A DNA stretch of 64,000 bases. Origin: Candidatus Saganbacteria bacterium (GTDB taxonomy: Bacteria; Margulisbacteria; WOR-1; O2-12-FULL-45-9). A program made the position numbers and the translations under genes. Of this stretch, positions 9,404 through 58,856 are shown piece after piece. The DNA lies in the NCBI GenBank assembly GCA_016932255.1, contig JAFGDE010000019.1, positions 8,614-72,613 on the forward strand, written 5' to 3'. The notes under the pieces are model-generated. The model saw nothing but the letters and a program-made list of their open reading frames with translations, had not been told where the DNA came from and searched no databases. Position 1 is the first letter of the stretch, and each line of letters starts with the position of its first letter.

Positions 9404-10065
9404 ACGATACCTATGTCCCTGACAACGATCCTGCCGCAGTATTTTGGACCATCAGACTTGAAAAAACCCTTTTTAGCCGCGACAAATGTCACCGTTCTTT
9501 TCGCTTTGACCGCGCGGCCAAGCCTCCTGCCGGTATCAGCATCCAGACCTGAAGGCACGTCAACTGACAGCACCGGGGCTTTGTGGTCATTGATCCGGTC
9601 GATGATCGAAGCATAAGGCTCGCGGATATCAGCGTTCAAGCCAAGGCCAAAGAGAGCGTCGATGATCAAAGACGCGCGTTGAGGGAGCCTGCGAGTGAAC
9701 CCTGCCTGCCGGCAGGCAGGGCCTGCGGCTCCAATCCTCTTGAGAATGGCATAATTGGTCTTTGGGTCCGGTTTTAGTTTGGAGAGCTTGCCGACGATCA
9801 TGACCTCGACCCTGAGACCGGCATTGAGCAGGTGCCTGGCCGCGACCAGGCCGTCGCCGCCGTTGTTGCCCGTGCCGCAAACGATAACGACTGGACCGCT
9901 GCCCTTGATCAGCCGCAAGGCCTCTTCCGCCACACCCCTGCCCGCGTTCTCCATCAATATAACAGAGGGGATCCCCAGCTTCTTCTGCGCGTCCTGGTCG
10001 AACTTTTGGGCCTGTTTGACCGAGATGGTCTTTGCCATGCTTAGATTATATAATGGACCGAACAA
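9400..10065 (-). CDS. nnrE: NAD(P)H-hydrate epimerase (YjeF N-terminal family)
   Basis: 221 aa with LMENAGRGVAEE, VIVCGTGNNGGDGLVAARHL and IIDALFGLGL. The start may instead be the internal MAKTISV (10038). The gene carries an in-frame repeat insertion. Confidence 0.85.
   Translation of the reverse strand: MFGPLYNLSMAKTISVKQAQKFDQDAQKKLGIPSVILMENAGRGVAEEALRLIKGSGPVVIVCGTGNNGGDGLVAARHLLNAGLRVEVMIVGKLSKLKPDPKTNYAILKRIGAAGPACRQAGFTRRLPQRASLIIDALFGLGLNADIREPYASIIDRINDHKAPVLSVDVPSGLDADTGRRLGRAVKAKRTVTFVAAKKGFFKSDGPKYCGRIVVRDIGIV
9687..9732. repeat. Composite palindromic element inside the nnrE coding sequence
   Basis: GCCTGCGAGTGAAC + CCTGCCTGCCGGCAGGCAGG (exact 20-bp palindrome, 9701-9720) + GCCTGCGGCTCC. 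It reads in-frame as ...GPACRQAGFTRRL.... Confidence 0.85.
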
Positions 10066-13743: not shown

Positions 13744-13754
13744 ATTATTTTCCC

Positions 13755-13821
13755 ATTAGGAGCCTGAGACTAAACGTCTCGGCTCCTAATGGAACCGCGA
13801 AGTTCATTCGCAGGTTCCATT
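13755..13821. repeat. Two adjacent hairpins between the epimerase stop and the GT28 start; the second is an 'empty' type-B hairpin
   Basis: First hairpin: ATTAGGAGCC...GGCTCCTAAT (13755-13790). Second: AATGGAACCGCGAA-GTTCA-TTCGCAGGTTCCATT (13788-21). The same GGAACCGCGAAGTTCATTCGCAGG unit recurs at 37972-38003 and 56269-56287. It probably also acts as a terminator. Confidence 0.7.
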
Positions 13822-14746
13822 AGGCCGTTTCTTTTGTCCATTCGACCGTTCTTTCCAGTCCCTGCTTGATGTCGACCTCAGGCCGCCAGCCAAGCTCTTT
13901 CTTTACCCGGCCGGCATCGAGTACGCTGCGGAAGAGCTCCCCTGTCCTGGCCGGAGCGTAAACCGCTTCTTGCGGATATTTAAAGATCGCTTTAAGGTGC
14001 TTGAACAGCTCGTTGACCGAAACACCTTTGCCCGTGCCGATGTTATAGATCCTGCCCGCGCCCTGCTCCAGGGCCAGCAAGTTGGCCCGGGCCACGTCGG
14101 CCACATAAACATAGTCGCGCAGCTGTTTGCCGTCGCCGTAGATGGTCGGCTGCTCACCTTTGAGCAGTTTGCCGCAAAAAATGGCGATAACCCCGGCCTC
14201 ACCCAGCGGGTCCTGCCGCGGGCCGTAAACATTGCCATAGCGCAGGACCGTGTATTCCAGTCCCCGGGTAATCTTGTAGGCATGCAGGTACATCTCGACC
14301 GAGCGCTTGGTAATGGCATAGGGCGAGATCGGCTCCTGGGGATGGTCCTCGGCCGCGCCGTTCTTTTGTTCCACCTCGCCGTAGATCGCGCCGCCGGTCG
14401 AGGCAAAGACGATCTTCTTGACGCCGTTCTTGACCGCGGCATTGAGCAGATTGAGCGTGCCGAGCTCATTGACCTCGGCATTGAAGACCGGGTCCTCAAC
14501 CGATTTGCGCACGTCGATCTGCGCAGCGTGGTGATCGATGATCTCGGGGGAAAAAGCAGCGACCGCCTTGTCAACATCCTGGTCGCGCCTCAGATCGACC
14601 TCAAAGAAACGGGCCTTGGGGTTGAGGTTGGCCTTTTTCCCGGTGGAGAGGTTGTCGAGCACAGCAATTTCATGACCGGCCGCGATGAACGCGTCGACCA
14701 CGTTGGAGCCGATAAAACCAGCGCCGCCGGTAACCAGTATCTTCAT
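13820..14746 (-). CDS. NAD-dependent sugar epimerase (UDP-glucose 4-epimerase family)
   Basis: 308 aa with KILVTGGAGFIGSN and the SDR catalytic YxxxK (PYAITK). Confidence 0.85.
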   Translation of the reverse strand: MKILVTGGAGFIGSNVVDAFIAAGHEIAVLDNLSTGKKANLNPKARFFEVDLRRDQDVDKAVAAFSPEIIDHHAAQIDVRKSVEDPVFNAEVNELGTLNLLNAAVKNGVKKIVFASTGGAIYGEVEQKNGAAEDHPQEPISPYAITKRSVEMYLHAYKITRGLEYTVLRYGNVYGPRQDPLGEAGVIAIFCGKLLKGEQPTIYGDGKQLRDYVYVADVARANLLALEQGAGRIYNIGTGKGVSVNELFKHLKAIFKYPQEAVYAPARTGELFRSVLDAGRVKKELGWRPEVDIKQGLERTVEWTKETA

Positions 14747-20832: not shown

Positions 20833-21293
20833 ATTTTTCTCTCCGTGTCTGAAATAACCTCGAGTTCGATCTGGTGGGCTGTTCCCGGCATCAGACTGCC
20901 CAGTTTCTCAGCCCATTCGATCACGCAAACACCGCCGCGGTCAAAATATTCCTCGATCCCCAAGTCCTCGACCTCTGCTTCGCTCTCTAAACGGTACAAG
21001 TCAACATGAAAGAACGGCAGCCGGCCCGGGTACTCGTTTACAATAATGAAAGTCGGTGAAGTGACATAATCGCTGACCCCGGCTCCCTTGCCAATCCCCT
21101 GGATCAGGGTGGTCTTGCCTGCCCCCAGCTGTCCGGTCAAAGCAACAACATCGTTGGGCAATAAAAAAGCGCCGATCCTTTTGCCCAGCTCAACGGTCTC
21201 TTCGGCGCTTTTTGTAACGAACTCTTTACCAGCGTTCGTAATCGTCGTAGCCCCCGCCCTTGATCTCCTTGAACCCGGGCAGCTCGTCATCAT
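20796..21293 (-). CDS. tsaE: tRNA t6A biosynthesis ATPase TsaE (start uncertain)
   Basis: Motifs EETVELGKRIG...VALTGQLGAGKTTLIQGI...SPTF and HVDLYRL are present. The track ORF extends to 21338 and overlaps folK. No clean start lies near the conserved core, so the 5' end is approximate. Confidence 0.75.
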   Translation of the reverse strand: MMTSCPGSRRSRAGATTITNAGKEFVTKSAEETVELGKRIGAFLLPNDVVALTGQLGAGKTTLIQGIGKGAGVSDYVTSPTFIIVNEYPGRLPFFHVDLYRLESEAEVEDLGIEEYFDRGGVCVIEWAEKLGSLMPGTAHQIELEVISDTERKICVSSDLAARLK

Positions 21294-21882
21294 ATTTCTC
21301 GCCTGACTCAGCCTTACGCTCCTCATACAAAGCTTCAACGGTCTTTTCCAGTATGGGATGCATGGCCTGCGGCGCGATCTCGCGCATGGGCTTGAGCACG
21401 AACATACGCTCGTGCATCAGCGGATGCGGGATCTGCAGCTTGTCGTCAGAAACGATCTCATCACCGTAGAACAGGATATCGATATCAATAGTACGCGGCC
21501 CCCACTCGATCTCGCGCTCGCGGCCAAGGGTCGCTTCGATCTCATGGCAGAGGTCCAGCAGCTTTTCCGGCGGCAGTTTAGTGCGCACGGCCACTGCCGC
21601 GTTGATGAACGGCGGCTGGCCGCCGCTGCCTTCAGCCTCGGTCTCAAAATTGCTCGAGTGTTTCAGCAGCTCGACGTTCGGGTTCTTCTCCAGCAGAAAA
21701 AGCGCCTGCTCGACATATTCCTCGCGGTCGCCCACATTGCTGCCGATACCAAGATAAGCGATGACCTTGCCGCGCTTGCCTTTCTTGCCTGCTTTGGACT
21801 TTTTGGCCTTTTTAGGCGCGCTCTTTTTCTTGGCCTTGGCCGGCCGGGCCTTTTTGCTGGCGGTCTTTTGCTTCTTTGCCAT
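21226..21882 (-). CDS. folK: HPPK (FolK) with a Lys/Ala-rich N-terminal tail
   Basis: 218 aa. The core AYLGIGSNVGDRE...GPRTIDIDIL...LQIPHP is preceded by about 39 residues, MAKKQKTASKKARPAKAKKKSAPKKAKKSKAGKKGKRGK. Confidence 0.85.
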   Translation of the reverse strand: MAKKQKTASKKARPAKAKKKSAPKKAKKSKAGKKGKRGKVIAYLGIGSNVGDREEYVEQALFLLEKNPNVELLKHSSNFETEAEGSGGQPPFINAAVAVRTKLPPEKLLDLCHEIEATLGREREIEWGPRTIDIDILFYGDEIVSDDKLQIPHPLMHERMFVLKPMREIAPQAMHPILEKTVEALYEERKAESGEKYDDELPGFKEIKGGGYDDYERW

Positions 21883-26492: not shown

Positions 26493-27603
26493 TGACCTCG
26501 TCTCCTTTATAAAATACCATAGACTGACCAGGAGTTATTGCTAACTGAGATTCTTTAAAAATTAACCGGGCTCTGGGCCTGCCTGCCGGACAGGCAGGTT
26601 CTAGGTGCTGGGTGCTGGGTGCTGGGACCAGCATCGCAGCAGCCTCCGGCGAATTATAGCGTATCTTGGCCATGACCGCCAAATCCCCCTCAGGTATACT
26701 GCCGGAAATATAATTGATCTCTTCAGCCGCAAGCTCCGTGCCCATGACATCCGCCTGGTCGCCGATAACGACCTGGTTCTTCTGCGGGTCGAGCCTGACA
26801 ACGTATTTGGGCCGTCCCTGGTAATGGCCAATGCCTTTGCGCTGGCCCAGCGTATAGAAACAAATGCCTTCGTGCTGGCCGACGACTTTGCCCTGCTGGT
26901 CAACAATATCGCCCGAGCGGACAGCCTCGGGACACTGCAAACGCAAAAAAGCCCCGTAATCATCATGATCGATAAAACAGATCTCCTGGCTCTCAGCTTT
27001 ATCATGCACTGATAGACCGAGCTCTTTGGCTTTCTTCCTAATCTCCTCCTTGGTCAGCTCACCCAGCGGGAATAAGGTCCGGCTCAGCCTGGCCTGATCA
27101 AGAACATAAAGAAAATACGACTGGTCTTTTTTCGGATCCTTGCCCTTTAACAATTTATAAATAACATGACCTTCATTCTTCATTCCGCACCTGCCTGCCG
27201 GCAGGCAGGATTCTTCATTCTGCATTATCCTCGCATAATGCCCCGTAGCTAACTTCTCCGCTCCCAGCTCTTTAGCTTCCTGCCAGAGCAGATCGAACTT
27301 GATCTCGCGGTTGCAGCGGATACAGGGATTGGGCGTTCTGCCCTGTTTATATTCATTGATAAAAACATCCACGACCTTCTGCCTGAACTCATCGCTCAGG
27401 TCAAAGACATGATGCTCGATGCCCAGCTTGTCTGCGACCTTTTTGGCTTCACGCGCTGCCTGGTCTTTGCCCGGCCAAACGATCATGGTCACCCCGATGA
27501 CCTCATGGCCCTGCTCTTTGAGCAAAGCAGCGGCCGTGGACGAATCAACCCCGCCGGACATGGCTAGAGCGACTTTTTGCCTGTTTTTAATGAAATTGCT
27601 CAT
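26458..27603 (-). CDS. mnmA: tRNA 2-thiouridine(34) synthase MnmA carrying two in-frame repeat-derived insertions
   Basis: 381 aa with PP-loop VALAMSGGVDSS, NPCIRCN, ATGHYAR, KDQSYFLY and ITPGQSMVFY. Two extra segments are encoded by repeat DNA (26578-26627 and 27170-27230). Confidence 0.9.
   Translation of the reverse strand: MSNFIKNRQKVALAMSGGVDSSTAAALLKEQGHEVIGVTMIVWPGKDQAAREAKKVADKLGIEHHVFDLSDEFRQKVVDVFINEYKQGRTPNPCIRCNREIKFDLLWQEAKELGAEKLATGHYARIMQNEESCLPAGRCGMKNEGHVIYKLLKGKDPKKDQSYFLYVLDQARLSRTLFPLGELTKEEIRKKAKELGLSVHDKAESQEICFIDHDDYGAFLRLQCPEAVRSGDIVDQQGKVVGQHEGICFYTLGQRKGIGHYQGRPKYVVRLDPQKNQVVIGDQADVMGTELAAEEINYISGSIPEGDLAVMAKIRYNSPEAAAMLVPAPSTQHLEPACPAGRPRARLIFKESQLAITPGQSMVFYKGDEVIGGGLISSKDK
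26578..26627. repeat. Palindrome variant plus 8-bp satellite inside mnmA
   Basis: CCTGCCTGCCGGACAGGCAGG (a 21-bp variant with a central A) followed by TTCTAGGTGCTGGGTGCTGGGTGCTGGGA. It reads in-frame as ...PAPSTQHLEPACPAGRPRA.... Confidence 0.85.
27170..27230. repeat. Type-C arm split by the 20-bp palindrome, inside mnmA
   Basis: CCTTCATTCTTCATTCCGCA + CCTGCCTGCCGGCAGGCAGG (27190-27209) + ATTCTTCATTCTGCATTATCC. It reads in-frame as ...MQNEESCLPAGRCGMKNEGH.... Confidence 0.85.
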
Positions 27604-36204: not shown

Positions 36205-36252
36205 GGAACCGCGGCGTTCAGCCTGCCTGCCGGCAGGCAGGCCGCAGGTTCC
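36205..36252. repeat. 48-bp composite palindromic element, copy 1
   Basis: GGAACCGCGGCGTTCAG-CCTGCCTGCCGGCAGGCAGG-CCGCAGGTTCC. Identical to the copy at 36815-36862. Confidence 0.9.
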
Positions 36253-36262
36253 GAATCCCGGC

Positions 36263-36724
36263 TTAGACTGATTCCAACACGTGATACTTGATCTGGCGGC
36301 GGCCGAAATCAAGCGCGTCGCTGTATCTAAGCATCCAGATATCGATGCGGTCGGTATAGCGCCGGTTCATCCGGTCCTCGACCGTGAAGACCTGGTCGCC
36401 AAAGCCTTCAATGACGATCTTAGTGCCGATGGGCAGATGGTTGGCCGCGACCACGCCAGGCCGGCAGCGGGTTCCGGAAGCCGTGATCCAGGGGGTTGAG
36501 TCGCACTGGCCAACCATAGAGTTATAAGCCGTGGCAGTGGAAACATCAGAATAAGCAATACGGTAATGGCCGGCAATAAGCAGCTGTCTGGCTGAGGACG
36601 GAATAACCACCAGGCCGATCAAGAGCAAGCCCAGGCAGAAAGTCCTAGCCCAGAAAGGCAGTTTTTCAGCCAGTTTACTCCAAAATATGCAGAATTTAAG
36701 TTTATAATAGAGTCTGCCGCGCAT
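36263..36724 (-). CDS. 3D-domain (MltA/RlpA-like) cell-wall-binding protein
   Basis: 153 aa with an N-terminal TM/signal anchor. TATAYNSMVGQCDSTPWITASGT...GTKIVIEGFGDQVFTVEDRM...IDIWM matches the 3D-domain pattern. Confidence 0.75.
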   Translation of the reverse strand: MRGRLYYKLKFCIFWSKLAEKLPFWARTFCLGLLLIGLVVIPSSARQLLIAGHYRIAYSDVSTATAYNSMVGQCDSTPWITASGTRCRPGVVAANHLPIGTKIVIEGFGDQVFTVEDRMNRRYTDRIDIWMLRYSDALDFGRRQIKYHVLESV

Positions 36725-36775: not shown

Positions 36776-36862
36776 GGGTTCGGGTTCTAGGTTCTGGGTT
36801 CTAGGATAAAAAATGGAACCGCGGCGTTCAGCCTGCCTGCCGGCAGGCAGGCCGCAGGTTCC
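36776..36862. repeat. GGGTTCT-type satellite plus 48-bp composite element, copy 2
   Basis: GGGTTCGGGTTCTAGGTTCTGGGTTCTAGG (36776-36805), then an exact second copy of the 48-bp element (36815-36862). Confidence 0.9.
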
Positions 36863-37894: not shown

Positions 37895-37920
37895 GTTATT
37901 TGCCCTCCTTTTATTTAGTA

Positions 37921-38003
37921 GCCTGCGGCCTGCCTGCCGGCAGGCAGGCTGAACGCCGCGGCTCCTTTTTTGGGAAACCGCGAAGTTCATTCGCAGGTTT
38001 CCC
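37921..38003. repeat. Filled composite element followed by an empty type-B hairpin
   Basis: GCCTGCGG-CCTGCCTGCCGGCAGGCAGG-CTGAACGCCGCGGCTCC (37921-65), then GGGAAACCGCGAAGTTCATTCGCAGGTTTCCC (37972-38003). Confidence 0.9.
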
Positions 38004-38010
38004 ATAAATA

Positions 38011-40602: not shown

Positions 40603-40651
40603 GGAACCTGCGGCCTGCCTGCCGGCAGGCAGGGTTCACTCGCAGGTTTCC
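40603..40651. repeat. Filled type-B hairpin in the 5' region of the Rrf2-cysK operon
   Basis: GGAACCTGCGG-CCTGCCTGCCGGCAGGCAGG-GTTCACTCGCAGGTTTCC. Confidence 0.9.
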
Positions 40652-56268: not shown

Positions 56269-56347
56269 CCGCGAATGAACTTCGCGGCTTAGTTTGTTAT
56301 ACTGAATTAATAAGTTAGCCGAGGCGCCTGCCTGCCGGACAGGCAGG
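56269..56347. repeat. Empty type-B hairpin (reverse orientation) and a 21-bp palindrome variant
   Basis: CCGCGAATGAACTTCGCGG (56269-87) and CCTGCCTGCCGGACAGGCAGG (56327-47). Confidence 0.85.
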
Positions 56348-58733: not shown

Positions 58734-58856
58734 ACCTGCGGCTAAACGCCGCGGTTACGCTTTTTAGTTCAGGAAACCGCGAACCTGCCTGCCGGCAGGC
58801 AGGGTTTACTCGCCGGTTTCCTGGTTTTCTTTCCCAGAACCTAGCGCCTAGATCCC
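58734..58856. repeat. Empty host hairpin, filled type-B hairpin and satellite tail
   Basis: ACCTGCGGCTAAACGCCGCGGTTA (58734-57, no palindrome). GGAAACCGCGAA-CCTGCCTGCCGGCAGGCAGG-GTTTACTCGCCGGTTTCC (58772-821). CCCAGAACCTAGCGCCTAGATCCC (58833-56), which overlaps the suf gene stop. Confidence 0.85.

Follow-up and report, generated by a model that had tools for sequence, protein, structure and literature searches.

The element under study is a 20-bp palindrome, CCTGCCTGCCGGCAGGCAGG, hereafter termed PAL, in a 64-kb stretch of DNA (the window; positions 8614-72613 of contig C29) from the genome of an uncultured member of the Saganbacteria, phylum Margulisiibacteriota. The genome (G000) comprises 1.67 Mb in 31 contigs with a GC content of 53.6%; the labels G, C and L denote genomes, contigs and loci, respectively. 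At the focal site PAL is found within one of two hairpins resembling repetitive extragenic palindromes (REP), which form an inverted doublet in a spacer flanked by two genes of the minus strand. The features of the focal site are as follows, with the strand given where one is assigned.

58734..58757 (C29 67346), minus strand: empty REP-like hairpin of the GC..GC subtype, left member of the focal doublet
58772..58821, plus strand: PAL-filled REP-like hairpin of the AA..(C)T subtype, right member of the inverted doublet
58784..58803: focal exact 20-bp copy of PAL, between the stem arm (..GCGAA) and the loop (GTTTA)

A Logan contig from a public run, retrieved by exact-protein look-up, was identical across the focal spacer, and the same look-up with a second protein gave no match. 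Exact copies of PAL start at positions 9701, 27190, 36222, 36832, 37929, 40614 and 58784 of the window, all seven as claimed in an earlier reading of the DNA letters alone (the original prediction). The window contains 10 matches to PAL at three or fewer mismatches compared with 0.02 expected, a number reached by none of 100 shuffles. Genome-wide, 22 exact copies were found, 7 of them in the window, and approximately 43 copies were recovered with a loose search that allowed up to one change per half and zero to three extra central bases.

The host hairpin family

The hairpins of the focal doublet belong to a family of ∼80 copies of ∼30 nt with the consensus xxGGAACCGCG-NN-GTTYA-N'N'-CGC(A)GGTTCCxx. 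A pattern census of the genome revealed 62 empty hairpins, 15 filled with PAL as matched by regular expression (16-19 when degenerate copies are included) and 3 otherwise filled, and the reversed-pattern control gave no matches. Five stem positions switch between Watson-Crick alternatives with at least 98% of copies paired, the covarying pairs including 6-27 (AT 47, GC 11), 10-22 (CG 42, AT 17), 12-20 (AT 45, GC 13) and 13-19 (CG 42, AT 12, GC 5). Of 60 distinct copies, 57 have GTTCA or GTTTA as the loop and 53 keep the bulged A. The two hosts distinguished in the original prediction, A (GC..GC or AC..GT) and B (AA..TT), proved to be subtypes of this one family. The hairpins are usually arranged as inverted doublets, of which there are 22, the focal site among them, invariably in (-)(+) order and ∼35-45 bp apart. 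The hairpins are mostly intergenic, the gene context of the repeats being based on crude longest-ORF (open reading frame) calls. No duplication was detected flanking the doublets, for which the best direct repeat had a mean of 4.05 compared with 4.03 in controls, with one 13-bp exception.

The insertion of PAL nearly doubles the stability of the stem. Folded as single-stranded DNA, the focal hairpin has a predicted energy of -17.4 kcal/mol with PAL and -9.4 without, PAL alone folding at -8.0; with RNA parameters the values are -27.9 with PAL and -14.3 without. This gain, together with the location of many copies between genes of one operon, would be consistent with filled hairpins being a functional variant under selection, acting as a stronger terminator, an mRNA stabiliser or a protein-binding site. 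Such a role is very improbable. The orientation of the hairpins relative to flanking genes is without bias (19 sense, 15 antisense), and a U/T-run is absent from the transcribed strand of the focal hairpin, grounds on which an intrinsic terminator was rejected; the one match resembling a terminator lies on the plus strand and does not exceed the number in shuffles (1 vs 0.8). Furthermore, the hairpins matched no family in Rfam, copies also occur inside genes, and relatives are without the elements at the same operon junctions.

PAL as a discrete and independent insertion

The original prediction described PAL as a discrete insertion module in hairpins that also exist without it, and both points were borne out by the 62 empty hairpins of the census and by a relative, G032, with 39 hairpins and no PAL. 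Filled sites equal empty sites plus 20 or 21 nt, with no target duplication; in the focal host the difference is exactly 20 bases, between GGAAACCGCGAA and GTTTACT.... When PAL is located in an array of tandem heptamers, the 7-base phase runs on across the insert. The element also nests within itself, the second PAL splitting the first after base 9 or 11, in the CCGG loop (C19 72686 and C30 17458), and PAL-in-PAL was likewise found in other genomes, including at L158 and L159.

When orthologous sites in relatives were compared, as proposed in the original prediction, the difference between filled and empty sites in genomes of the same genus was found to be exactly the inserted bases. At L157, conserved coding-like sequence of G058 is interrupted by 21 bp (PAL plus one base), an insert that G045 of the same genus lacks. 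Also in G058, an unrelated hairpin (GGGYGGG..CSCCC) holds a 42-bp PAL-inside-PAL in its loop, which is empty in G035 and G045. These results establish that PAL is a discrete unit, that its junctions are precise and that its occupancy differs between relatives. The nested-PAL hairpin of G058 (L159, G058:C3:37458-38477) is at a position in an orthologous gene that in two genomes of the same genus (L223 and L232) holds a CTTRCTN heptamer array, and the position resembles a hot spot for tiny repeats of different kinds.

The operon encoding HcyBio and NIL-Fer4 was also compared, although the best metagenome relative of HcyBio, with 86% amino-acid identity, is too distant for occupancy to be read site by site. 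Nearly all of 80 syntenic metagenome loci (69-86% protein identity) are without hairpins and PAL. In the 12 closest syntenic loci, which were read individually, the HcyBio stop codon, the Shine-Dalgarno sequence and the next ATG overlap, and at this point G000 has an 85-bp doublet with PAL. The comparison shows that the inserts at this operon are lineage-specific. The doublet is the exception noted above, flanked on both sides by the 13-bp duplicate ATTTGCCCTCCTT, which on the coding strand carries a stop codon and a Shine-Dalgarno sequence, so that HcyBio and NIL-Fer4 both keep their signals.

The distribution of PAL and of the hairpins was determined in 65 genomes of the class and 81 genomes from the rest of the phylum; these kin are not independent, and correlations across related genomes are to be read accordingly. 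Exact PAL was present in 46 of the 65 class genomes and in none of the 81 others, with counts of 0-32 that vary sharply between members of a genus (one genus has 32, 2 and 0), and the hairpin family was present in 47 of the 65. PAL occurs without hairpins, or nearly so, in G058 (32 PAL, 0 hairpins), G055 (15 and 0) and G026 (20 and 1), and hairpins occur without PAL, or nearly so, in G032, G020 (24 hairpins, 0 PAL) and G025 (36 and 1). Since the two genome distributions are separable, the results demonstrate that PAL is a module independent of the hairpin family; it is equally independent of the transposase described below. The opposite polarity, in which filled hairpins are ancestral and the empty ones have precisely lost an unstable palindrome, is compatible with single-site parsimony, which gives no polarity, and perfect palindromes are prone to deletion. 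This explanation is nevertheless highly improbable in view of the hairpins that thrive in the PAL-free genomes G032, G020, G005 and G022, the excess of empty over filled hairpins (∼4:1, every subtype included) and the several different junctions.

Beyond the phylum, the exact 20-mer was found in more than 119 contigs assigned to Patescibacteria, Bacteroidota, Omnitrophota, Planctomycetota, Proteobacteria, Nitrospirota-like bacteria and Chloroflexi, compared with a chance expectation of ∼0.5 in 596 Gb by our arithmetic. It is also present in 35 contig stretches of IMG/VR, and no occurrence of the PAL string was found in the searchable literature. The cultured Bacteroidota strain Longitalea luteola SYSU D00799 (L098/G147) carries 29 exact PALs, some in GTTCNNN heptamer arrays, and is a possible laboratory model. 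A 7-base periodic context surrounds 8-21% of copies compared with 1% of controls, the signal appearing at lag 7 but at neither lag 6 nor lag 8, and long inverted flanks are more weakly enriched (3-6% vs 1-2%).

PAL is recurrent in partial duplicates of tRNA genes in several Saganbacteria and Patescibacteria, either in the D-loop (..GGYAGA-PAL-CRCAAGGG..) or in the T-loop (C24:107260-107310 and C24:110841 in G000; L154, L156, L160, L163, L167, L168, L187, L048 and L070). Insertion in intact tRNA genes was rejected, as nearly all cases are partial duplicates next to an intact gene; ARAGORN detected an intact tRNA spanning PAL in one case only (L063). The tRNA-fragment sites resemble scars of attachment (att) sites or a recurrent target. 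Movement of PAL through an RNA intermediate, by reverse splicing or reverse transcription, would account for precise insertion without duplication, for the hairpin shape and for the presence of PAL in transcribed regions and tRNA-gene fragments, and Elhai and co-workers reportedly suggested in 2008 an RNA intermediate for the small dispersed repeats (SDRs) of cyanobacteria. This route is considered quite unlikely; a perfect palindrome leaves no orientation to read.

Junctions, composites and candidate enzymes

The remaining copies of PAL and the reference hairpins of the window are listed below.

9684..9732, minus strand: rearranged REP-like hairpin with PAL at 9701-9720
13753..13824: inverted doublet with both hairpins empty, the reference empty state
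26578..26598: 21-bp PAL variant with a central A, in a GGTKCTG heptamer array
27190..27209: PAL outside hairpins, in an in-frame insert in mnmA, where it keeps the phase of the ATTCNNC heptamers
36205..36252, plus strand: single PAL-filled REP-like hairpin, PAL at 36222-36241, junction GTTCAG^C
36815..36862, plus strand: single PAL-filled REP-like hairpin, PAL at 36832-36851, with the junction and host subtype of 36205 and 37929 and different outside flanks
37920..38004: inverted doublet in the HcyBio / NIL-Fer4 operon, its reverse hairpin filled (PAL at 37929-37948, junction GTTCAG^C) and its forward hairpin (37972-38003) empty
40603..40651: hybrid hairpin, its left arm from a reverse copy and its right part from a forward copy, with PAL (40614-40633) between them
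48692..48743: pair of degenerate PALs, separated by 32 bp, in heptamers of the AAATCCG type
56327..56347: degenerate hairpin (GCCGAGGCG^TTCAGCCTCCGGC) carrying a 21-bp variant of PAL, with the junction NNG^TTCA

A further degenerate copy is located at ∼49388. The sequences given in the original prediction for the 21-bp variants at 26578 and 56327, the filled hairpins (58772-58821, 40603-40651, 37921-37965, 36205 and 36815), the empty hairpins (58734-57, 37972-38003, 13788-13821 and 56269-87) and the degenerate copies were all confirmed. Between the two PAL-filled hairpins at 36205 and 36815 there is an ORF of 153 aa (36263-36724, minus strand) with no match in Pfam, and a look-up for an exact copy of its product elsewhere returned none on record.

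The statement that PAL always sits in a host hairpin was not upheld, as the copies at 27190, 26578 and 48692/48724 are located in 7-base arrays. Approximately 37% of the PAL copies of the genome are in hairpins, which occupy ∼0.14% of the DNA, and ∼60% of the ∼43 copies are outside them, seven in heptamer arrays and others in partial copies of tRNA genes, ORFs and plain spacers.

Within hairpins, at least three kinds of junction were found in place of the single insertion point originally proposed. The junction NNG^TTCA occurs in C16, C22 45820, C18 12167, C27 and at 56327 of the window; GTTCAG^C/T at 36222, 36832 and 37929 of the window, in C15 and in C6; and NN^GTTYA at 58784 and 9701 of the window, in C14, in C30 and in three AAG-CCGTGCC copies. 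Copies with a common junction also have a common PAL variant and host subtype, and their outside flanks differ. The arrangement GCGTTCAG-PAL-C is present three times inside 1.7 kb with unrelated outside flanks, and other repeated classes are an AAG-CCGTGCC-variant (three copies) and a ACGTTCAG-CCTTGCC-variant (two copies). The sharing of junction, PAL variant and subtype is more readily explained by common descent of REP+PAL composites than by repeated targeting, and suggests that hairpin+PAL composites of 48-50 nt were co-amplified. By exact pattern, PAL was found in this hairpin family five times in G000 and once in 64 relatives, and no PAL-filled hairpin was found in G004 (59 hairpins, 28 PAL), G057, G046 or G143 despite many of both. 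This near-confinement to G000 indicates that the hairpin is not a generally preferred target.

Other nested arrangements were observed. A second mini-hairpin, CCTGCCCCGATTCCCA(C/T)ATCGGGG (24 nt, CCTGCCCCGATTCCCAYATCGGGG), fills the loop spot of PAL in three host hairpins (C10:16489-16536, C18:95666-95713 and C22:49752-49799) and was found nowhere else in the genome. The composite AGAATGAAATTCCCTGCCTTGCCG-PAL-TCGGTTCCAAAATACAAATTGCTC is present in at least six copies on several contigs of G007, with PAL within a degenerate PAL within another dispersed repeat. The contig IMGVR_UViG_3300037242_000417 (L333, L340 and L341), filed as viral, carries six exact PALs, three of them at one point of one hairpin family, GACCCACCCTCG-PAL-CAAAAACCGCGAGGATGGGG.

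The feature at 40603-40651, described in the original prediction as a plain host B, was found to be a hybrid in which a reverse left arm and a forward right arm are joined at PAL. Its arrangement would be the product expected from deletion or recombination between the two PALs of a doubly filled doublet. The hybrid, the composite classes in G000, G007 and the viral contig, and the finding of neither an enzyme nor a target motif are points in favor of PAL having no mobility of its own, its spread resulting from recombination, gene conversion or template switching between repeats that share flanks, with amplification of the larger repeats. As a complete explanation this is improbable: it does not accommodate the clean 21-bp insert in unique coding-like sequence at L157, the hundreds of unrelated PAL flanks across phyla, the nesting of PAL in its own loop or the in-phase insertion in heptamer arrays of unrelated sequence.

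No transposase was detected in the 64-kb window, in agreement with the original prediction, and the search of the rest of the genome which it recommended revealed two Pfam Y1_Tnp genes, each encoding 125 aa. Both gene products score above the cut-off of the curated IS200/IS605 model and below that of the curated model for REP-associated tyrosine transposases (RAYT), and the closest solved structures in the PDB are Sulfolobus IS200 and ISDra2 TnpA. The protein encoded on C16 (C16 TnpA), which has an HUH motif and a catalytic Tyr, scored 67.3 bits with the IS200 model NF033573, for which the cut-off is 55. The C16 gene (21335-21712) is flanked by a (-) hairpin at 21281-21324, itself PAL-filled, and by (+) hairpins at 21729 and 21776, which is the arrangement of the doublets. 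At least six relatives likewise have a Y1 gene at a distance of 30-130 bp from a hairpin of this family. The transposase associates with the host hairpins and not with PAL, and the PAL-rich genomes G023, G026, G057 and G015 are without a Y1 gene. The IS200-type enzyme on C16 is accordingly the putative agent that would mobilise the hairpins and doublets. The second Y1 gene (C14:37873-38250; C14:37843-38285 with repeats) is bracketed by another hairpin, CCCCACA-N6-TGTGGGG, with six copies in the genome; in a relative PAL is present in the loop of this hairpin (L200), and in G046 it is 85 bp from a homologous Y1 gene (L178).

The original prediction of targeted, RAYT-like spread is supported only in part: an IS200-type Y1 gene bracketed by hairpins is present in the genome, but PAL is not tied to Y1. 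Placement of PAL at a single fixed position in the hairpin, whether by the REP/RAYT-type enzyme of the hairpin or by another targeted enzyme, would be consistent with the concentration of ∼37% of copies in 0.14% of the genome, with junctions at the stem-loop border, with an independent-looking case in another hairpin family of G023 that has the same GTTTAG^T junction, and with the PAL-filled state of the hairpin adjoining the C16 gene. Nonetheless, this explanation is unlikely given the three or more junctions, the classes common in PAL variant and host subtype that point to descent, the lack of filled hairpins in G004, G057, G143 and nearly all other relatives, the PAL-rich genomes without the Y1 gene or without the hairpin family, and the ∼60% of copies elsewhere.

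Overall, the results are probably best explained by two stacked layers of selfish DNA, REP/REPIN-like hairpins (REPIN, REP doublet forming hairpin) and an independent PAL micro-element. In the first layer, the hairpins would be moved as single-stranded DNA without target duplication, most likely by the single-copy IS200-type Y1 transposase of C16. In the second, PAL would be a 20/21-nt perfect GC palindrome of the SDR kind, copied precisely and without target duplication into arrays of heptamers, genes, fragments of tRNA genes, the loop at its own centre and, a few times in this lineage, the stem-loop border of the REP. Once in a REP, PAL would multiply by hitch-hiking as the 48-50-nt REP+PAL composite is copied, and pairs of PALs may then recombine as proposed for the 40603 hybrid. 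PAL is accordingly viewed as a putative non-autonomous element copied in trans at the DNA level, the REP-nested copies having been multiplied mainly by hitch-hiking. The copying activity would be trans-acting and not encoded beside PAL, and we would guess that it is possibly carried by phages or plasmids.

Several results weigh against this explanation in two layers. At least three separate entries into 0.14% of the genome are far above random landing and imply some local target preference. As a general rule, however, a preference of PAL for hairpin loops was rejected in a fold-based control comparison (0.18-0.22 vs 0.14-0.20), as was a common flanking target motif such as TTC, found only in the hosts of G000 and not across phyla. 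No recurrent protein family was detected within 2.5 kb of PAL at 119 loci, the largest cluster comprising 4 of the 119. The Y1 gene is present in 17 of 24 genomes with four or more PALs and in 24 of 41 others, which is not significant in a 2x2 test, and C16 TnpA fails the curated RAYT model NF047646 REP_Tyr_transpos (44.8, cut-off 80). The occupancy differences between relatives come from G058, G045 and G035, and none concerns the focal site itself. Finally, the genome is a metagenome-assembled genome that is 89.9% complete, and contig C16 is linked to the window by binning and shared repeats.

The results newly provide a filled/empty series inside a REP family, two layers that are separated by their phylogenetic distribution, and evidence for co-amplification and for PAL-PAL recombination. 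The series offers naturally filled and empty states for a 20-nt element with exact junctions, and suggests that a selfish repeat can exploit a second one as its host and be multiplied by it. An identical 20-mer across phyla and viral contigs points to an unrecognised and very general copying of short hairpins into DNA. More tentatively, and with a good deal of doubt, PAL may be one of the smallest mobile DNAs, moving between and within genomes of many phyla without a linked gene, by means of a widespread host or phage-borne activity, and colonising selfish elements that then amplify it, in which case the REP-nested copies would be a record of target choice at stem-loop borders. The inserts alter the stability of intergenic hairpins, add seven codons in genes and supply recombination points, and for annotation they account for odd GC-rich palindromes in REP-like repeats and genes of uncultured bacteria. 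Cultured carriers of PAL, which include strains of Flagellimonas and Winogradskyella besides Longitalea luteola, make the question open to experiment.

Comparison with known systems

The BIME (bacterial interspersed mosaic element) mosaics of E. coli and the BOX elements of pneumococci consist of small modules in variable order in intergenic DNA. PAL differs from these in being physically inside the hairpin of another module and in having an independent distribution across phyla. A miniature inverted-repeat transposable element (MITE) of the DDE type was rejected, as there is no target-site duplication at PAL, either in hairpins or in heptamer arrays, or at the doublets. The host layer is like IS200/IS605 and its gene-less derivatives in the Y1 transposase of 125 aa, the hairpins at both ends and the lack of target duplication, and unlike them in having one gene copy for ∼80 hairpins and in that a conserved target tetranucleotide was not identified. 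With REP and REPIN sequences (PMC3116915, PMC3733652) the host hairpins share dozens of short, imperfect and mostly extragenic palindromes, inverted doublets, and a single-copy Y1 HUH gene bracketed by hairpins. REP palindromes carry a GTAG or CGTC tag at one end (PMC3733652). In contrast, no such tag was seen at the foot of the present hairpins (xxGGAACC.../...GGTTCCxx, with variable outer pairs), and the enzyme is an IS200-type TnpA and the host lineage the Saganbacteria.

The SDRs described by Elhai and co-workers in 2008 are said to occur in tandem heptamers and miniature transposons, to be self-nested and to have been mobilised by an activity then unknown. PAL resembles SDR1-8 of Nostoc punctiforme and its relatives in length (∼20-27 nt), hairpin formation and precise insertion. 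Like the SDRs, it is present or absent at orthologous sites, the same-genus genomes being without the 21-bp and 42-bp inserts, and it occurs in heptamer arrays, in REP hosts and within itself. SDR5 inserts precisely between the third and fourth base of the repeat HIP1 (PMC4390886), and the SDRs are reported in the Nostocaceae only (PMC5861425). PAL is unlike the SDRs in being a perfect GC palindrome that is letter-identical in many phyla, cultured Bacteroidota among them, and in contigs filed as viral. Since its distribution is wider than the Nostocaceae, PAL is, as compared by description, at most of the same kind as the SDRs and not of the same family.

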